From positions 3,008,001-3,072,000 of the forward strand of contig CM000153.2 in assembly GCA_000004695.1 (NCBI GenBank): DNA of 64,000 nt, given 5' to 3'. The translations under genes were made by a program, and so were the position numbers. Below are positions 12,871 to 24,100 of this stretch, piece after piece. The notes below the pieces were generated by a model. That model was given only the letters and a program-made list of their open reading frames with translations. It searched no databases and was not told the origin of the DNA. This DNA comes from Dictyostelium discoideum (Eukaryota). Within the stretch, counting starts at the first letter, position 1. Every line of letters starts with the position of its first letter.

Positions 12871-14010
12871 ATGAAATTAGTTAATATTTTTATAATGCTT
12901 GTTATTTTTTTAATAACATTTTCTGTATATAATAAAATTTATCCAAATAATAGTAATACTAGTAGTAGTAGTAGTAGTAGCAGTAGTAAATATGAAGATT
13001 TTCAAATAAATAAAGAAATAAAAAACCAAGATTATTGTAGAATTGAGTCAATGGATTTTTCAAAATTAAATGAAGAATTAATAATAGAGAATAGAGGTAT
13101 TGCTGATATTATTGTTGGTGATAAAGATATAGAAAACATTAATTATATTGGTTTAGATTCATTTAAATGTTCATTAGGATTCAATGGAATTTATTTGACA
13201 CCATCAAATATTTGGAATGTCATAATTTTAGGTTTAAATAAATTGGTTAACCCAATGAAATACTCTTCATTAATTAATGAAAAGGATCAAACTTTAATAT
13301 TACAAAATTCAATTTTTAAAAATAATAATAATAATAATAATGATCAAATTGAAAAGATTTTAATTGAAGAAATATCAAAAAAAATAAATCCAACTTTCAA
13401 ACAACTCTTAATACCAAAATTTGAATCATCAACATTAAAAGATGGATTAATATTTTTAACAAATGCAATTGGAAAGAGGAATGGTGTATATGATTATGGT
13501 ATGATAGATTGTAAGGTTCCTTCATGTTATGTTAATGAAAGTTTGCCAAAGGATATTCAAATTTTGGGTAATATAGAAGATTATGAAAAAATGTTGATTA
13601 ATATTAAATCGATTTATGATCTTTTATATGAAGATTTTAATTTGGATGATACATCATTCAAACTTTTTGAATGGTATGGAAAGAATACATTCATTATAGA
13701 ATCTATTATCAAATATATGCGTGATAAGTCATTTAAAAATATGGATTTATATTATTTTATTAATAAATTCCATTCATCAAATTCACTAAATGGTTTTTTA
13801 AATGATGCAAGAGGTTTTTCATATATTCCAATTGAAATTGTGAATGGAACTGATTTAGTGTATCCAACAGGAACAAAAATAAATTTATTTGCTGGTCATT
13901 TTGCTTCAAATATCTTATTACCAAAATCTATTCATGGTGGTTTAGCAATCGTGGAACCTACAATCAATTGGGTCATTACAAAATATCGAATGTTCAGTTC
14001 AATAATTTAA
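12871..14010 (+). CDS. Secreted protein of unknown function, 379 aa, single exon.
   Basis: It has an N-terminal signal peptide (MKLVNIFIMLVIFLITFSVYN), a poly-Ser tract and several Cys residues. I recognised no conserved domain. Confidence 0.45.
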   Translation: MKLVNIFIMLVIFLITFSVYNKIYPNNSNTSSSSSSSSSKYEDFQINKEIKNQDYCRIESMDFSKLNEELIIENRGIADIIVGDKDIENINYIGLDSFKCSLGFNGIYLTPSNIWNVIILGLNKLVNPMKYSSLINEKDQTLILQNSIFKNNNNNNNDQIEKILIEEISKKINPTFKQLLIPKFESSTLKDGLIFLTNAIGKRNGVYDYGMIDCKVPSCYVNESLPKDIQILGNIEDYEKMLINIKSIYDLLYEDFNLDDTSFKLFEWYGKNTFIIESIIKYMRDKSFKNMDLYYFINKFHSSNSLNGFLNDARGFSYIPIEIVNGTDLVYPTGTKINLFAGHFASNILLPKSIHGGLAIVEPTINWVITKYRMFSSII

Positions 14011-14478: not shown

Positions 14479-16536
14479 ATGATGGAATTAGGATTTGAAA
14501 ATGATATTGATTTATTAAATCAATATCAAACAATTCAATCAAGAAAAACAAAAGATTATAAAAAGTTTTTAGAAATTAAACAAGAGAATAAGAATCAACA
14601 TTTAGATATTATCTCATCATTTTGGGATGTAATTGTTATTACTGCTATTGATTCACTTCAAAAGGAATACTATGAGCAAGTATTAAAAGAAAAGATGAAT
14701 CAAAATCAAATTCCATCATTTATACCTTACGTTGTAATTTCTGATCCAGTTGGTGAAAAAATAGGTTGTGGTGGTTCAACCCTTTATGTTTTAAAAACAT
14801 TATCAACAATATTTGGTGATGATAAAATTAAAAATAGTAAGTAATAATAAATAATAAATAATAAATAATAAATAATAAATAATAATAATAATGCACATAT
14901 TAATATCTTTCAAAATAAAGTGAAAATATTATTATTACATGCTGGTGGGTATAGTAAAAGATTACCAAATCATTCAACAACTGGTAAGATATTTGCATCA
15001 ATACCATGTACACTTGGAATGGGTGGAAATAATAATAATAATAATGATGACGAAGATGAATCAAAATTACAAGCATGTTCAATGTTAGAAATTAAATTAA
15101 TAATATTAATTGATATACCAAAGAGAATGAAACCAGGTGTATTCTTAGCATGTTCAGATGATATTGAATTATTTGAATCAAATGAAATGTCTTTCAATTC
15201 AAGTGAAGATGGTACATTCATTGCATTATCTCAACCTGGTACATTGGATATTGGTGTTGGACATGGTGTTTTCATTCTTGATGATGTTAATCAGTATAAA
15301 CCAAATCAATTAAATTCATGTAGAAAATTCATTCATAAACCATCAAAAGAGAAAATGAAAAATGAAAATGCTATACTTTCAAATGGTTTAGTTTTAATGG
15401 ATAGTTGTTATTATTTCGATCATAAAGTTTTTTCAATTTTATTAAATTATTATAATCAAAATAATCCAATTAATTGTGAAATTGATGCATATTCTGATTT
15501 TTTACAAGTAAGTAATAATAATAATAATAACTAATATTATTTATATTATCGTTAATATTAATATTATTATTTTTATTTATTATTATTATTGATTTAGCCA
15601 TTAGGTAAAAGTGCAGAACCAAATTATTTTCAAGTTAAAAGTAATGTTACAAAATTTTTACCACATTTACCAAAAGAAAGAGAAAAGATATATAACTTTT
15701 TAAATTCAAATAAATGTAAATTAGAAATGATACCAATGTCACCATCTGCATTCATTCATATTGGTACATGTCATGAATATATTGAACATTTTACAATCAA
15801 TTTCCCAAAATTAGGTTTTAAGAATTTAATTTTCTCTGAAATTGGTAGTGGGATTAATAATAATAATAACAATAATAGTGTTATTTTACATTCAATATTA
15901 TTAAATAATTTAAATACAATTATTAATGATAATAGTGTAATTGAATATTGTAATTTTAAAGGAATTAATAAACTTTCAATTGGTAATAGATGTATAGTAT
16001 CAGATTTAGAATTTGAAAATTCTAATGAACAGCAACAACAACAGCAACAACAACAGCAACAACAACAACAACAACAACAAACATTATCGTCATCAAATTA
16101 TTCAATTGAAATACCATCAAATTCATTCATTCAAACACTTTCAATTAGTTGTAATAGATATGTTACAATATTCTTTGGTATTGATGATGATTTAAAATCA
16201 ACTACAAATCCAAAATTATTTGGTATTCCTTTAAAAGATTATAATTTAAATTCAATTAATACTAGTGATGATAATAATAATAATAATTCACTTTGGAATG
16301 CACCATTATTTCCAATTTCAAATATTTCTCCAAAAGATTCACTTTTAAAAACTTTAAATAGTTTACAAAAAACAAAACAAACAAACTTTTTTTCAAATAA
16401 TGAACAACAACCCCAACAACAACAACAATCATATTATTCAATTGAACAATGTTTAAATGAAAAGGATTTATCAAAACAATTTATTAGAAGATCAAATTTA
16501 ACAAATGAAATTTTAAATTTAAAAAATAAAAAATAA
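14479..16536 (+). CDS. fpgt: Fucose-1-phosphate guanylyltransferase (GDP-L-fucose pyrophosphorylase, salvage pathway). Three exons: 14479-14836, 14921-15507 and 15598-16536.
   Basis: It aligns with human FPGT: FWDVIVITAIDSLQKEYYEQ matches [41 protein letters not shown] matches [47 protein letters not shown] matches ILLIHSGGYSQRLPNASALGKIFTALP, and CEIDAYSDFLQ matches CEIDAYGDFLQ. Splice sites are A|GTAAGT (14836/14837), aaag|TG (14921), CAA|GTAAGT (15507/15508) and tttag|CCA (15598). Confidence 0.8.
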
Positions 16537-16688: not shown

Positions 16689-18832
16689 TTAATTATCACA
16701 AATATAATTTTTAATAATTTCTTGAATTGAACGAGTATCAAGTATTTGTGAAGGTGTTAGAGGTGTAGAGATGAATGAAGAAGAAGTTTGATCAATATCC
16801 ATTGGTGGTGAACGTAAAATTGGTGGTGAAGTTGACCAAGGTAATAGAGGTTGAATTGAGTTGAATAATGATCTTAAACCAAAACCAATACTACCAACTG
16901 AAATATTTCTTTGTTTAATACAATAAATTGAAATGATAATTTCAATGGTAATTAATTTCCAACCTTGTTCAATCAATTGTTTTGTATTCTTTATTGATAG
17001 TGGTGCTTGTGAAGATGTGTCTTCATAACCTTCACATAATTGCATGCCAGATTGTTGAGTTAATACAGGTTGTGATAATTGTTGAATCGTTGATACAATA
17101 GATGAGGCAATTTTACAAAGATTTAAAATTTGATAATGGTAATTCTTTTGTTGTTCAATTGTATGTTGTTTACTACCAACTGAACCACTTGAATTGAAAT
17201 TTTGAAAATTATTAAATTCATTCCAAGGTAATTTTGAAATTCTTTGAGCTTGTGTTTGTATACATCTACAAAGTGATAATCTTAATGTATCCATTGACAA
17301 TGATAATAAACCACTATCGATATTACCATTTGTATAGGGTAATCCATTATCTTCATTACTTTGAATCAATGGATTATCAACACATAAATTCATCTCTTTT
17401 TCAAATATACCATAACACCAATCAAATGATGTATATGCTGCACCATGAATTTGACTAACATTTCTAAAACTCATTGGATCAATTAAATTACATTTTTTAT
17501 CTTTTAATAAATTTGGTGTTTGATTACCACTATTATTACTATCATTTGTTTGATTATTATTATTAATATCATTATTTTGATTATCACTTGATGACCATAA
17601 TTTACTAAAATTTAAAATATTTTGAAAATTATTTGAACATTGAACTTGACCATTTTGATTATGAACTTTACTAACTACAGAATTTAAACTATTTAAATTC
17701 ACTCTGAATGCTTCCATTGCAAATGAGGCAGAAGTATCAAGAGCATTTAAAAAGCATGAAACATCATTTAAAGTTAATGCTCCAGATGCTAATGTTATAC
17801 AATTTCCATTAATTAATGAATTTGTCTCTAAAATTGATAATTGTTCATTTTCTTTTAATGAATTAATTAAATCATCACCATCATCATTATTATTATCACT
17901 ACTACTACTACTACATTGAGTTTGATTATTATCACCATTAAAATCGATATCATTACTACAACCACCACTTAAAAATGGATATGGAATAACTTTTGGTATT
18001 TTACCATTTGGTAATGAAATTGATTTACCAATTAATGGCAATGATGCTTGTGATAATGATATTGAATCGGAATTACCATTTGAACAATTATCAATTACTA
18101 ATGGAAGGTTATCTTCTTTTAATCTTTTTATTAATGAATCCAATGTCAATAATGAAATTCCTGATGTTCCAGATGATAATAAATTCAATTGAATTAATAA
18201 TGATGCTCTTAATACTTTATCTGGTATATAATCATTTGAAACTATTGAAGAATTTTGAATTATTAAATTTTCATTTAAATTAATTTTGAAATTATTATTT
18301 TGGTTATTATCATTTAAATAATTTAAATAACTATAATTATTATTATTATTATTGTTGTTATTGCTATTATTATTATCATTATTATTACTATTATTACTAT
18401 TATTATTTGATGGTTTTGTTTGTGGTAATTGATCTTTGTTTTTAATTTGTTCTTGATTAATTTTAATTTCTTCATTAGAATTTTCTTTGATTTTGTTTGG
18501 CAATAATGGTGATAAAATTGATAAAGAATTTTTCAAATCTTTACCATTGTCATTGTATACAAAGTTTTTAATATCAAATTTGTTTTTATTTTCTTTTAAT
18601 TTAATTGCTAAATTATTTCTGTATTCGTTAACTCGAGCAATTGTTTTATCACCAATAAAAAATCCTACCTTTTTATTAGCAAATAATACAACTTGTTTTA
18701 TACTTTTTTTATTATTTTTTTATTTTTTTTTATTTGTTAATAGATTTTTAATTTTTTTAATTTTTTTTTTTTTTATTTTTTAATTAATAATTACCTTAAA
18801 TTATTTGTTGATATAATTATTTCTGGTTCCAT
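16689..18832 (-). CDS. Histidine/aromatic-amino-acid ammonia-lyase (HAL/PAL family)-like protein. It is highly diverged and probably catalytically inactive. Two exons: 18832-18795 and 18702-16689.
   Basis: Family motifs are conserved in order. GISLLTLDSLIKRL matches HAL GISLETLKQVIEMF. PMSFRNVSQIHGAAYTSFDWCYGIFEKEMNLCVDNPLI matches HAL DAYTLRCCPQVHGVV...ELNSATDNPMV. The LINGN...ASGALT region matches the HAL LINGTQ region. At the position of the MIO-forming GASGDLAPL motif the sequence reads SLSQASLPLIG, with no Ala-Ser-Gly. The VYGITTGFG motif is replaced by VYNDNGKDL. Long poly-N inserts are present. Exon 1 (MEPEIIISTNNL) splices at AG|GTAATT to aaaag|TATAAAACAAG, in frame with the 615-aa ORF. 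Confidence 0.6.
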
Positions 18833-19527: not shown

Positions 19528-20793
19528 ATGAAAAATGATTTATATACATTCGGAAAGAAAAATTATATACTCAACAATTTATTTAGGAGTTTAGGAGAAA
19601 TAAAGAAAATTAAAGATGATTTACAAATTGTTAGATTAACTATGAATTGCCAGAAAATTAATATTATTGATATTAAATGCACTAATGATACTTTATTTAT
19701 ATTATTTTCAAATGGTGAATTTATTTGTAAAAGAATGATTCCAACATTATCTATAAATGAAATAACATCACCAATAAAAATTTTAAAAATATCATCAGGT
19801 TATAATCATTTTCACCTTTTATCAATTGATAATAAATTATATGGATTAGGTGACAATAGTTTTAATCAAATAGGTTTTAATAATATTAATATTAGTAATA
19901 ATAATTGGTATGAAAGAATAAAACAAGTCGAATATTTTAATGAAATTAATTTAAAGATGGTATCATCTGGTGGTAGACATCATTCAATATTTATTGGTAT
20001 TGATGGTAGTGTATATTCTTGTGGTTCAAATAAATATAATCAATTAGGAAGAAGAACAACTAATGGGGAAAATGAAACAACTCATAATATTGAAAAATTA
20101 GAAACAACTATTCTATTCGATAATTGCTCGTCAGGTGATCATCATAATTTATTAATAGCAACTAACGGATTAGTATATGGTTTCGGTTTAAACTCACATG
20201 GTCAATTAGGTATAATTACAAATTATAATGTAAAATTACCAATTTCAAATAATAAAAATGAAAATGATAATAATAGTAATGAAAATGATAATTATGGTTA
20301 TTCTATTAAACTATTAACATTATTAGAAACATTAAAAGATGAACATATAGTTGAAGTTAGATGTTCAATGTGGCATAGCATATTATTATCAAAGAAGGGT
20401 GAAGTTTTCACATTTGGCGAGGGATCTTCATTTCAATTAGGTCATGGTGATAATATCTCTTATCAAACCCCTATTCTCGTTGATGAATTATCTGAAAATA
20501 ATTTTAAAATTAATTCAATATCTTGTTCAACTAATTCATCTTTATTTTTAGATAATCAACATAGAGTATTTTATTGTGGAGATAATTTCATTTCACAAGA
20601 TTTTGAATGTAATAATCAAGATAACCAAAATTACAGCTATGATGGGGATGATGAGGATGATGATGATAATGATAATGATTGTAGTAATAAAATCGAAAAT
20701 CCAACACCTTTAACTCAACTTATACAAACATTGGATTTTTCTCCTCCAAATAATATCTACACCCATAATTCAAACTTTAACTTTATGTGGTAA
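19528..20793 (+). CDS. RCC1 (regulator of chromosome condensation) repeat-containing protein.
   Basis: At least five RCC1 blades carry the signature YGLGDNSFNQIG, YSCGSNKYNQLG, YGFGLNSHGQLG, FTFGEGSSFQLGHGD and FYCGDN. The ORF ends ...NFMW, where the TGG/TAA overlaps a GTAAGT, so a further 3' exon is possible. Confidence 0.65.
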   Translation: MKNDLYTFGKKNYILNNLFRSLGEIKKIKDDLQIVRLTMNCQKINIIDIKCTNDTLFILFSNGEFICKRMIPTLSINEITSPIKILKISSGYNHFHLLSIDNKLYGLGDNSFNQIGFNNINISNNNWYERIKQVEYFNEINLKMVSSGGRHHSIFIGIDGSVYSCGSNKYNQLGRRTTNGENETTHNIEKLETTILFDNCSSGDHHNLLIATNGLVYGFGLNSHGQLGIITNYNVKLPISNNKNENDNNSNENDNYGYSIKLLTLLETLKDEHIVEVRCSMWHSILLSKKGEVFTFGEGSSFQLGHGDNISYQTPILVDELSENNFKINSISCSTNSSLFLDNQHRVFYCGDNFISQDFECNNQDNQNYSYDGDDEDDDDNDNDCSNKIENPTPLTQLIQTLDFSPPNNIYTHNSNFNFMW

Positions 20794-21505: not shown

Positions 21506-24100
21506 TTACAAGAAATTGTTGTTGTTATTATTATTATTAATATGAACTTGTTGGTTGTTGTGATGAGAATTAAAAATTTGTTTATATTTTAATTCCAAAT
21601 GTTTAGTAAAATTTAAATTATCACAAAGTGGGGAATTAATCATTAAATTTCTTAGATTACTTCTAAAGAATATTAATTTATCGATATCTCTTGACAAAGC
21701 CAAAGCGATTTCAACATATTGACCATGATTGTAGGCAACCAACTGAGGTAGATTTAGTGTATGTAAAATTGATTTACCCACATTATTACAATGATAAGAA
21801 GGTGTTGATAGTGAAACCGTTGGAACACCCATCCAAAGTGATTCACAAGTTGTTGTAGTACCAGCGTATGGAAAAGTATCTAAACTAATATCCAACATCT
21901 GGCTATAATATTGAAGATGATCTTTTTGATGAGAAAATAAACCAACCAAATCCACCTGATTCAAATTGAATCCAAATTTAATTAATCTCTTGCTAAATGA
22001 TTTCTTTGTATCTTCACAAGCGAATGGTTTACTCTTTAATAATAATCTTGTTCCAATTGGTGATCTATCCAATATTAATTTCCAACAATTTAAACATTTA
22101 TCACTATATTTAGCCATAACATTAAATGATCCAAATGTAATATAACCATTCTTTAAAAATGGTGGTGGTGGTGGTAATGGTGGTGGTGGTGGTAGTGGTG
22201 GTGGTGATGGTGACGGTGGTGATATATTATCATTTGATGATGATGCTGCTGAAATTGGTGGGAAATAAGTTAAAAAACATTGTGGCATTCTAATTAAAGT
22301 TTCAGTGAATTGTTGTTTTGTATCTAATGGATCAACTATTGAATCTGTTATTCTATATTGAATAGTTTTTAAACCTGTTGTATTTGGATAACCAATGTAT
22401 GATATTTGAATTGGTGATGGTTGTAATGCCATAACATCCATTCTATTACCACAGGTATGACCTGACAACTCTACCAATATATCAACTTGATCATCCTTTA
22501 TCAATTGAACTACCTCCATTGTAGGTTTACCAGTTATATGTCTCCATTCATGACCATATGATTTTAATCTTTCAGTTGTAGTATCTTGTTTAGAAATATT
22601 TGAATAACATATAATTTTAAATTCTTCCTTATTATGAAATTTTAAAATTCCTTCAATAAAATAACTAACTGAATGTATAAAAAAATCACCTGAAATATAA
22701 CCAATAATTAATTTATCTTTTTTTTTAATTATTCCATTATTATTATTTATGTTATTATTATTACTATCAATACCATATTTTAAATTTAAAGAATTTAAAA
22801 ATGATTGACCCCATTGTTGGTGAATTTCATAAATTTGTGAATAATTAAATTCTGTTGAATAATTTAATGCCAATAATTTATTATGTTGAGCATTTAAAGA
22901 ATTTGTTGGTGAACATTGAATACATTTTTCATAACTTTTGATCGATTGAGAAATTTTACCAATATCACGATAAACTACACCAAGATTATTATAAGCATCG
23001 GCATATGTTGGTGATTCTTTAATTGCAAGTTTAACATATTTTTTTGCTAATTTCATCTTTCCTTGCATTGTATAAATAATTGCTAAATTACTTAAACTTT
23101 GAGAGAATGATGGATTCGATTTTAATGCTAATTGATAATAGTGTATTGATTGTTCAATATTATCAATATCTTTATATAATACACCTAAATTATTTAAAGC
23201 TTCAACATATTGATTATTATTATTATTACTATTATTTTTATTATTTATTTCATTAAAATGAATTGCTAATTCATAATTCATAATTGATTTTTCAATTTGT
23301 TTTCTTTCACTAAATAATACGCCTAAATTATAATAAGTACCTTCATATTTGAAATTATAATGTAATGATTTTTTATAGAATTCTTTAGCTAAATCAATTT
23401 CACCATTCAATTTAACTTTTGTACCTAAATCGTTATATGCTATCGCTATATTATTCTTTACAAGTGAATAGTTTGGATTGATTTGTAGGGCACGTTTATA
23501 ATATTCTATACTTGTTTCAATTTCACCAAGATTCTTTCTAATTACACCAATATTACATAAAACCTCTGGATAATTTGGATTTAATAATAATGCTTTTGAA
23601 TAACTTTCCAACGCCAATGAATATGAAATACCCTCTTCATAGAATACAACTCCCATATAAAATAATGCTGTTGAATTCTTTACATTTGATCTACTTGCAA
23701 GATAATACATTTTCAATGCATCAATCATTTTTTTCTTTTCTCTAAATTCTGTACCAACTTCAATTAAAAATTCATCAATTTTAATAATTTCATCATTACT
23801 AACCTGACTACTACTACCACTACCACTACTACTATTATTAATTATTTTAATTTCAATTAATTTATTTAAAAAACTAATAATTTCATTATTATAAATACTA
23901 TTATTTAAATCATTATTATTATTATTTAAATTATTATTATTAATATTATTTTCATTTAGTTTAACAATAATAAAACTATTAACTATATTATTTTTTTTAT
24001 TTTCTTTATCATTGGTAATTTCATCCTTTTTAATAATTTCAACATTTACTGAATTTGGATTGTCATGGATTATTATATCATAACAAATTTTAATTTGCAT
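21506..24100 (-). CDS. TPR-repeat glycosyltransferase of family GT41 (SPINDLY/OGT-like; likely a nucleocytoplasmic O-fucosyl or O-GlcNAc transferase). 864 aa.
   Basis: The N-terminal half holds about 9 TPR repeats with the YYNLG / NLGVLY / YNNLGVVY pattern. The C-terminal half matches the GT41 catalytic domain: LIIGYISGDFFIHSVSYF matches SPY/OGT RVGYVSSDFGNHPTS, and continues with ...MPQCFLTYFPP...FGSFNVMAKYSDKCLNCWKLIL...FPYAGTTTTCESLWMGVPTVSL. A proline-rich insert (SPPSPSPPPLPPPPPLPPPPPF) sits between the N- and C-lobes. Confidence 0.75.
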   Translation of the reverse strand: MQIKICYDIIIHDNPNSVNVEIIKKDEITNDKENKKNNIVNSFIIVKLNENNINNNNLNNNNNDLNNSIYNNEIISFLNKLIEIKIINNSSSGSGSSSQVSNDEIIKIDEFLIEVGTEFREKKKMIDALKMYYLASRSNVKNSTALFYMGVVFYEEGISYSLALESYSKALLLNPNYPEVLCNIGVIRKNLGEIETSIEYYKRALQINPNYSLVKNNIAIAYNDLGTKVKLNGEIDLAKEFYKKSLHYNFKYEGTYYNLGVLFSERKQIEKSIMNYELAIHFNEINNKNNSNNNNNQYVEALNNLGVLYKDIDNIEQSIHYYQLALKSNPSFSQSLSNLAIIYTMQGKMKLAKKYVKLAIKESPTYADAYNNLGVVYRDIGKISQSIKSYEKCIQCSPTNSLNAQHNKLLALNYSTEFNYSQIYEIHQQWGQSFLNSLNLKYGIDSNNNNINNNNGIIKKKDKLIIGYISGDFFIHSVSYFIEGILKFHNKEEFKIICYSNISKQDTTTERLKSYGHEWRHITGKPTMEVVQLIKDDQVDILVELSGHTCGNRMDVMALQPSPIQISYIGYPNTTGLKTIQYRITDSIVDPLDTKQQFTETLIRMPQCFLTYFPPISAASSSNDNISPPSPSPPPLPPPPPLPPPPPFLKNGYITFGSFNVMAKYSDKCLNCWKLILDRSPIGTRLLLKSKPFACEDTKKSFSKRLIKFGFNLNQVDLVGLFSHQKDHLQYYSQMLDISLDTFPYAGTTTTCESLWMGVPTVSLSTPSYHCNNVGKSILHTLNLPQLVAYNHGQYVEIALALSRDIDKLIFFRSNLRNLMINSPLCDNLNFTKHLELKYKQIFNSHHNNQQVHINNNNNNNNFL

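Follow-up and report, generated by a model that had tools for sequence, protein, structure and literature searches.

DDB_G0285259 of Dictyostelium discoideum, a strongly diverged and selectively constrained member of the MIO-less branch of the PF00221 lyase fold

The lyases and aminomutases of the PF00221 (Lyase_aromatic) fold that depend on 4-methylidene-imidazol-5-one (MIO), namely the ammonia-lyases acting on histidine, phenylalanine and tyrosine (HAL, PAL and TAL) and phenylalanine and tyrosine aminomutases (PAM and TAM), carry an Ala-Ser-Gly triad, in which Thr, Ser or Cys may stand for the Ala and which cyclizes to MIO. Members of the family without this triad have also been described: ergothionase, and the histidine-betaine and N(pi)-methyl-histidine-betaine trimethylammonia-lyases of Shewanella (bioRxiv 10.64898/2026.04.22.720169, 10.1101/2025.08.13.670108). 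In these efficient enzymes trimethylamine is a good enough leaving group, so that no MIO electrophile is needed; a Tyr on a lid loop serves as the base, with His/Glu and Gln/Arg/Asn as ligands (bioRxiv 10.64898/2026.04.22.720169, 10.1101/2025.08.13.670108). Because ergothionase and the histidine-betaine lyases are efficient without MIO, its absence alone does not imply inactivity. The locus considered here lies in a 64,000-nucleotide window of Dictyostelium discoideum (GenBank assembly GCA_000004695.1, contig CM000153.2, positions 3,008,001 to 3,072,000; coordinates below are those of the window). The gene at 16689–18832 had been described in an original prediction as a HAL/PAL-like gene that appeared to have lost its MIO triad, with the remark that no description of a MIO-less HAL homologue had been seen; given the enzymes above, that remark is outdated. 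The translation of this gene, 683 aa from two exons on the minus strand, matches 'hypothetical protein DDB_G0285259' of D. discoideum AX4 without a difference. The gene is genuine and under functional constraint, and its product belongs, though strongly diverged, to the MIO-less branch of the PF00221 fold.

Membership of the family is far beyond chance, with 165 bits against PF00221 (E 3.3e-48; gathering cutoff 27.3) and a probability of 100 (E 1.7e-39) in a profile–profile comparison (hhalign) with 17 canonical HALs. The fold is that of HutH, and so is the overall order of motifs, as had been predicted. Assignment to HutH itself fails, the NCBIfam scores being 93.4 bits against a cutoff of 539 (TIGR01225) and 105.8 against 524 (NF006871). 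The structure of the gene and the region of the cofactor site are as follows.

18795..18832, minus strand: exon 1, 38 nt (ATG..AG), encoding MEPEIIISTNNL plus 2 nt of codon 13
18703..18794, minus strand: intron, 92 nt, GT..AG, phase 2, directly 5' of 'IKQ'; splicing reproduces DDB_G0285259 exactly
16689..18702, minus strand: exon 2, residues 13–683 and the stop codon, with the whole PF00221 domain inside
18066..18077, minus strand: MIO-site equivalent, G222-N223-S224-D225, opposite G-A-S-G-D and one residue shorter
17775..17792, minus strand: LASGAL, residues 317–322, aligning with HAL 'CAVGAL' in the helix after Asn195; not the MIO site

At the MIO site every alignment reads G-N-S-[gap]-D opposite G-A-S-G-D, the Gly of the triad being the deleted residue. 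The alignments comprised phmmer and profile searches against PDB chains (in which the MIO residue is printed as X), a 131-sequence MAFFT alignment, a curated 18-sequence alignment and the hhalign comparison with the 17 canonical HALs; the Ala-Ser-Gly triad of the MIO-dependent enzymes is absent from DDB_G0285259 in all of them. The absence of the triad therefore stands as predicted, but the register does not: the segment SLSQASLPL, formerly placed at the triad, corresponds to HAL LAPLAHLAL, just downstream of it. Two ways in which a triad might have been overlooked were rejected. LASGAL is not a displaced triad, since it aligns with the helix after Asn195 and varies among orthologues (LAQGA, LASGS). 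Nor can a missed small exon restore the triad or the Tyr loop, because both regions lie within one continuous exon. P. violaceum (Polysphondylium) has the same continuous-exon layout, and the Tyr-loop motif is encoded in no other reading frame of the corresponding region.

In neighbour-joining (NJ) trees, the only type calculated, all MIO-less sequences, including the Treponema denticola ergothionase TdETL, form one group (bootstrap 100/100) within which DDB_G0285259 is nested. The dictyostelids are monophyletic (bootstrap 100), with D. discoideum and P. violaceum as a subgroup (100), and a bacterial clade X that excludes the dictyostelids appeared in 0 of 100 bootstraps. DDB_G0285259 shows the properties of the MIO-less trimethylammonia-lyase class, that is, no Ala-Ser-Gly, a loop one residue shorter and a place in this branch. 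Because the MIO-less branch that contains the dictyostelids is monophyletic, the loss of MIO predates Dictyostelium and was inherited from the ancestor of that large branch. The description of the gene as a HAL that has lost MIO is not upheld, as the shorter, Ala-Ser-Gly-less loop is common property of that branch. The nesting in the tree suggests that dictyostelids may have acquired the gene from bacteria.

A first homologue search, with the D. discoideum protein minus its low-complexity tracts, returned seven proteins, including P. violaceum CYY_008001, and missed T. lacteum. The relatives were recovered through an exhaustive profile search of 1.84 billion representatives together with a search seeded with the T. 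lacteum protein. Close matches in the profile search were a second D. discoideum strain, D. purpureum, a metagenomic relative of P. violaceum (~85% identical to CYY_008001) and T. lacteum DLAC_07852 (581 bits). The next matches form a graded bacterial series, at 283–140 bits against the dictyostelid profile, all with G-x-(S/A/G)-D at the MIO site; HALs that bear Ala-Ser-Gly score ~100–135 bits, below these MIO-less relatives.

Among known structures, TdETL (PDB 6s7j) is the best match to the dictyostelid profile (94.4 bits, against 91 for HAL), and the T. lacteum orthologue scores 163 bits against this ergothionase and 142 against HAL (phmmer). It is also the top Foldseek match of the AlphaFold2 (AF2) model, with a template modelling (TM) score of 0.80, a value likewise given by 1b8f. 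TdETL and DDB_G0285259 both lack Ala-Ser-Gly and share the one-residue-shorter loop (GEGD in TdETL, GNSD in D. discoideum), a DPLSFRC-type motif and a Glu-Asp pair. Unlike DDB_G0285259, TdETL keeps a YGLNRGVG Tyr loop, His83 and Phe329, and identity is only ~23%. Lys384 of TdETL is His in the donor bacterial clade, and the dictyostelid genes group with another bacterial clade, not with TdETL and P0089. The Shewanella proteins Swoo_3913 and SO_3299, likened here by description, are MIO-less PF00221 members without the ergothionase Lys and give urocanate-type products; a link to urocanate metabolism and to betaine transport is also seen for the bacterial relatives of the Dictyostelium gene. The Shewanella lyases are located in the periplasm and have all of Tyr, His, Gln, Arg, Asn and Glu, whereas the Dictyostelium protein has neither an intact Tyr loop nor His83. 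Its closest relatives are T. lacteum DLAC_07852 and a bacterial clade of 'aromatic amino acid lyase' proteins that includes those of Labrys, Rhizobium, Mesorhizobium, Acetobacteraceae and Inquilinus. The bacterial clade and the dictyostelids share the G-x-S-D, QDPLSFRC and C-terminal W/FGLRSL motifs and the Glu-Asp pair; unlike DDB_G0285259, the bacterial proteins and that of T. lacteum have no low-complexity inserts. HutH (P. putida 1b8f, T. cruzi 6v6h) has the same fold, and equivalents of its Asn195, Arg283, Asn313, Glu414 and Asp145 are present in DDB_G0285259; unlike HutH, DDB_G0285259 has no Ala-Ser-Gly, and other residues stand in place of the Tyr53 loop motif and of His83, Tyr280 and Phe329.

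A canonical hal gene does exist elsewhere in the genome: D. discoideum has a eukaryotic HAL orthologue and, in addition, a PAL-like gene that probably came from bacteria (Emiliani et al., 2009; PMC2657906). The same authors were unable to analyse a third homolog, 'one very divergent' (Emiliani et al., 2009; PMC2657906), and this is most likely DDB_G0285259. Within the paper library searched, no paper names DDB_G0285259 and none combines MIO, ammonia-lyase and pseudoenzyme. The term 'MIO-less' in PMC3903478 denotes an engineered S153A mutant and is irrelevant as a natural MIO-less homologue.

The substrate-binding and catalytic set of HutH (Tyr53, His83, Asn195, Gln277, Tyr280, Arg283, Asn313, Phe329, Glu414) is incomplete in DDB_G0285259. 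Asn311 (HAL Asn195), Arg426, Asn456 and Glu573 are kept; His83, Gln277, Tyr280 and Phe329 have become Asn163, Ile420, Met423 and Ile474, and the Tyr53 loop motif is gone but for the remnant Y62. The positions concerned are these.

18534..18563, minus strand: remnant of the Tyr lid loop, FVYNDNGKDL, residues 60–69; hhalign places Y62 at the HAL Tyr53 / ergothionase Tyr54 position
18303..18554, minus strand: Asn-rich disordered insert, residues 63–146, replacing the lid loop; predicted local distance difference test (pLDDT) <50 in the AF2 model; absent from T. lacteum and bacteria
18252..18254, minus strand: Asn163, at the position of HAL His83 (imidazole N-tau ligand)
17463..17480, minus strand: DPMSFR, residues 421–426, the (Q)DPLSFRC signature of the MIO-less branch (QDAYSLRC in HALs); Arg426 is the carboxylate-binding Arg283
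17370..17378, minus strand: DNP, residues 455–457; Asn456 is the carboxylate-binding Asn313, kept
17316..17330, minus strand: NGNID, residues 471–475, clade motif SHGNM(D/E) with its His lost; HAL Phe329 is Ile474
17019..17024, minus strand: E573-D574, HAL Glu414 (imidazole N-pi ligand) and the following Asp, both kept

The earlier observation that YGxTTGFG is replaced proved correct, FVYNDNGKDL being what remains of 'YG(I/V)TTG(F/V)G'. The longer motif YGxTTGxGSQK is invariant in the bacterial clade and T. lacteum, lost in D. discoideum and wholly absent in P. violaceum. A catalytic Tyr on an intact lid loop, as in TdETL (Tyr54) and Swoo_3913 (Tyr77), is therefore lacking: D. discoideum and D. 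purpureum have the lone Y62 and P. violaceum has no such Tyr. At the His83 position all members of the bacterial clade (100%), T. lacteum, HAL and TdETL carry His, and D. discoideum, D. purpureum and P. violaceum carry Asn. Among the imidazole and carboxylate ligands, Glu573, Arg426 and Asn456 are present and the His and Gln are not; the change of Gln277 to Ile is confined to D. discoideum, with Gln in D. purpureum and P. violaceum. In the MAFFT alignment K543 of D. discoideum and a Lys of P. violaceum fall in the column of TdETL Lys384, in a weakly aligned segment; the residue there is His in T. lacteum and in the donor clade. No variation is seen among the derived dictyostelid proteins in the pocket motifs DP.SFR, DNP, NGN.D and ED. 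The AF2 model has a confident core (364 residues with pLDDT >=90), with disordered segments at 63–146 (in place of the lid loop), 257–298, 409–417 and 638–644.

The dictyostelid orthologues fall into an intact and a degenerate form. A single intron occurs at the same position and in the same phase in T. lacteum, P. violaceum, the P. violaceum relative and both D. discoideum strains, and P. violaceum and D. discoideum also have a neighbouring fucose-pyrophosphorylase gene in common; the shared intron and synteny indicate that the genes are orthologous. The T. lacteum locus has no synteny with that of D. discoideum, so that its orthology rests on the shared intron and phylogeny. The T. lacteum protein (516 aa) keeps YGITTGVGSQK, His83 and G-A-S-D. 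Of 150 positions at least 90% conserved among 113 bacterial members, it retains 123 (82%), against 88 in P. violaceum and 80 (53%) in D. discoideum; the bacterial median is 99%. The derived lineage of D. discoideum, D. purpureum and P. violaceum has lost the Tyr-loop motif, His83 (now Asn), the His of SHGNM, two more invariant His and the C-terminal PIGxEG, the four His corresponding to T. lacteum positions 89 (HAL His83), 337, 368 and 400. In P. violaceum the Tyr loop is deleted, with no Tyr in the loop region in any frame. The same lineage has gained disordered inserts, of which T. lacteum has none, and keeps the old triad's Ser together with Asn195, Arg283, Asn313, Glu414-Asp and Asp145. 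Measured from the ancestor of the dictyostelids, the branches have lengths of 0.18 for T. lacteum, 0.48–0.53 for P. violaceum and 0.72 for D. discoideum; the derived proteins have evolved 2.6–4x faster than that of T. lacteum. DLAC_07852 (L013 5001-6604) is ~44% identical to alphaproteobacterial proteins, with a full catalytic set and no low-complexity inserts. It is probably an active eukaryotic enzyme of the trimethylammonia-lyase type, and a candidate for a horizontal transfer that later gained a spliceosomal intron.

The folded core of the degenerate form is under strong purifying selection. Between the two D. discoideum strains, the ratio of non-synonymous to synonymous substitution rates (dN/dS) is 0.17 overall, 0.05 in the folded core (29 synonymous and 6 non-synonymous differences) and 0.62 in the inserts. 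For P. violaceum and its relative, dN/dS is 0.076 overall and 0.033 in the core, with dS near saturation. The low core values in both pairs mean that selection maintains, in either lineage, the form that has neither the Tyr loop nor His83.

Relatives with the motifs GGVQFLN[LF][GS] and LQDPLSFRC number 498 among 185,579 prokaryotic species (GTDB, one genome each), and most of the best 80 of these 498 loci are from Alphaproteobacteria. The Ser of the old triad (G-A-S-D) is present in 96% of the bacterial clade and His at the ergothionase Lys384 position in 98%; other MIO-less clades carry Ala or Gly in place of the Ser. Members of the bacterial clade reach no cutoff of the curated or equivalog NCBIfam models, and the annotation 'histidine ammonia-lyase' carried by proteins of this clade and of the MIO-less branch is probably wrong. 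Gene neighbourhoods were taken from precomputed annotations and from our own clustering, in which a crude open reading frame (ORF) caller gives spurious long ORFs in GC-rich DNA; the families cited from the clustering are only those confirmed by NCBIfam. Of 72 loci, 15 have a true HutU (975 bits; cutoff 375), which is mostly adjacent and co-oriented, and HutC, HutF, components of betaine/choline-type ABC transporters and a BCCT transporter also recur. In other subsets the neighbours are UbiD/UbiX, a DddP-like M24 protein, an FA_desaturase (overlapping gene) and arginase-family fusions. The pattern fits a catabolic lyase that would form urocanate-type alpha,beta-unsaturated acids from a quaternary-ammonium (hercynine-like) substrate. 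The neighbourhoods are heterogeneous, and so no single substrate can be assigned. In P0012 (a metagenome-assembled genome of Actinomycetota) and P0259 (a JGI metagenome), a PF00491 arginase/agmatinase domain is fused N-terminally to the MIO-less lyase, and stand-alone arginase genes lie near the lyase in Labrys and Azospirillum loci. These fusions and neighbours hint at a guanidino- or formimino-linked pathway.

These data can be accommodated by the following sequence of events. The gene descends from the bacterial clade, whose signatures are G-A-S-D, QDPLSFRC and GGVQFLNL, and the ancestral enzyme may have been a betaine-type (hercynine-like) lyase producing urocanate. The known MIO-less enzymes require only a Tyr base on the lid loop and a carboxylate/imidazole-binding pocket. 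On the lineage of P. violaceum and group-4 Dictyostelium, the Tyr lid loop was then degraded or gave way to a disordered low-complexity insert, His83 became Asn, and three further clade-invariant His were replaced; strong purifying selection preserved the fold, the Glu-Asp pair and the Arg and Asn that bind the carboxylate. The D. discoideum protein would presumably no longer perform the elimination reaction and could survive in a non-catalytic or altered role, as a tetramer that has kept its pocket and binds a partner or a small carboxylate ligand. The reading of DDB_G0285259 as a repurposed, probably non-catalytic ligand-binding descendant of a MIO-independent betaine-type lyase is the best supported, and we give it about even odds. 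A pseudoenzyme or repurposed domain had been predicted, and this is the best available explanation for the form found in D. discoideum, D. purpureum and P. violaceum; the ground then given for it, the missing MIO, does not carry the conclusion. What counts as evidence for lost catalysis is instead that, after the T. lacteum split, the lid loop with its Tyr was lost along with His83 and further clade-invariant residues. A further step, to which we incline slightly less, is that these proteins are the first natural pseudoenzyme, or neofunctionalized non-lyase, with the HAL/PAL/ergothionase fold. An ancestor of group-3/4 dictyostelids would have captured the gene of a bacterial betaine-type lyase, and this gene would still be intact in T. 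lacteum; elsewhere the Tyr base and four His would have been lost, while very strong selection preserved the gene for a new role in ligand binding or regulation. In a bolder variant, the conserved Ser of x-S-D could support new chemistry.

Several observations weigh against a non-catalytic descendant of this origin. Support for the dictyostelids and clade X as an exclusive group is only 57% (NJ); the link to a substrate comes from gene neighbourhood alone, and the neighbourhoods are of mixed content (UbiD/UbiX, FA_desaturase, DddP-like, arginase fusions). The invariant pocket motifs (DP.SFR, DNP, NGN.D, ED) also fit retained catalysis and, being located at the subunit interface, are ambiguous; and D. 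discoideum and D. purpureum keep Y62 where hhalign places the catalytic Tyr. These last points lend themselves to a still-active MIO-independent lyase, acting on a carboxylate substrate, possibly a changed one, with a good leaving group and with Y62 or another residue as base. Arg426, Asn456, Glu573/Asp574, Asn311 and Ser224/Asp225 are all kept, K543 occupies the aligned position of ergothionase Lys384, which is His in the bacterial clade (the segment being weakly aligned), purifying selection on the orthologues is very strong, and the relatives without MIO are efficient catalysts. HAL and ergothionase, however, are both crippled when the lid-loop Tyr is mutated. The P. violaceum orthologue is equally constrained and yet has no Tyr in the loop region, the GxTTGxGSQK lid motif has given way to ~85 disordered residues, His83 and three other clade-invariant His are gone, and Gln277 is Ile in D. 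discoideum. Continued lyase activity is judged unlikely, though it deserves serious consideration.

The other explanations are much weaker. A bona fide HAL/PAL that recently lost Ala-Ser-Gly within Dictyostelium, and is a pseudoenzyme for that reason, would agree with a PF00221 member that lacks the triad and is probably non-catalytic, but the shorter loop is also found in T. lacteum, the 498 bacterial species and ergothionase, all in one group with a bootstrap of 100. The hutH score of 93 bits against a cutoff of 539 and the separate eukaryotic HAL orthologue of D. discoideum (PMC2657906) point the same way; this origin is contradicted by the phylogeny and is very improbable. Equally little credence is given to another electrophile at the old MIO site, such as dehydroalanine formed from the Ser of x-S-D, which would make the protein an ammonia-lyase with an unconventional prosthetic group. 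Such a modification is speculative, no cofactor is present in the MIO-less relative of known structure, and DDB_G0285259 has in any case lost both the Tyr base and His83. In MIO and GFP chemistry cyclization needs the amide nitrogen of the Gly, and it is this Gly that is deleted here. What speaks for the idea is that all dictyostelid orthologues, and 96% of the bacterial clade, retain the triad Ser where other MIO-less clades have Ala or Gly, and that some bacterial members lie in hut-like operons at the place expected for HutH. A decaying pseudogene or annotation artefact, which the long low-complexity inserts and the many lost family-invariant residues might bring to mind, is scarcely credible: five genomes share an uninterrupted reading frame and the intron, synteny is conserved, the AF2 core is confident, and the core dN/dS values of 0.05 and 0.033 led to its rejection.

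DDB_G0285259 is the only PF00221 gene in the window (tblastn). The window is extremely AT-rich (GC ~0.2), with coding tracts of poly-Asn and poly-Gln. The fucose-pyrophosphorylase gene is convergent with the lyase gene and is kept as a neighbour in P. violaceum and the second D. discoideum strain; the RCC1-like gene lies upstream of the lyase gene, is divergent from it, and is also present in the second strain. The neighbouring genes are as follows.

12871–14010, plus strand: 379-aa ORF with a DUF4419 domain (E 3e-9) and a hydrophobic N-terminal segment
14479–16536, plus strand: split gene with a fucose pyrophosphorylase domain (PF07959), in ORF pieces 14479–14844, 14920–15534 and 15727–16536
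19528–20793, plus strand: RCC1-like repeat protein (PF25390/PF00415)
21506–24100, minus strand: 864-aa protein with TPR repeats and a Glyco_transf_41 domain (O-GlcNAc transferase / SPINDLY-like), with a proline-rich PSPSPPPLPPPPPLPPPPP tract within the catalytic region

The absence of Ala-Ser-Gly in PF00221 proteins marks a separate, enzymatically active, MIO-independent branch and not a dead enzyme. MIO-less members of the family were already known; what is new is a eukaryotic derivative that is doubly degenerate yet maintained by selection and whose sister orthologue is intact; it is also experimentally tractable. The large bacterial donor clade, encoded near urocanase and betaine transporters, provides candidates for further hercynine- or betaine-type lyases that release trimethylamine. 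The dictyostelid series, intact in T. lacteum and degenerate in Polysphondylium and Dictyostelium, with all its members under selection, offers a natural before-and-after pair for the repurposing of a fold following loss of its catalytic base.

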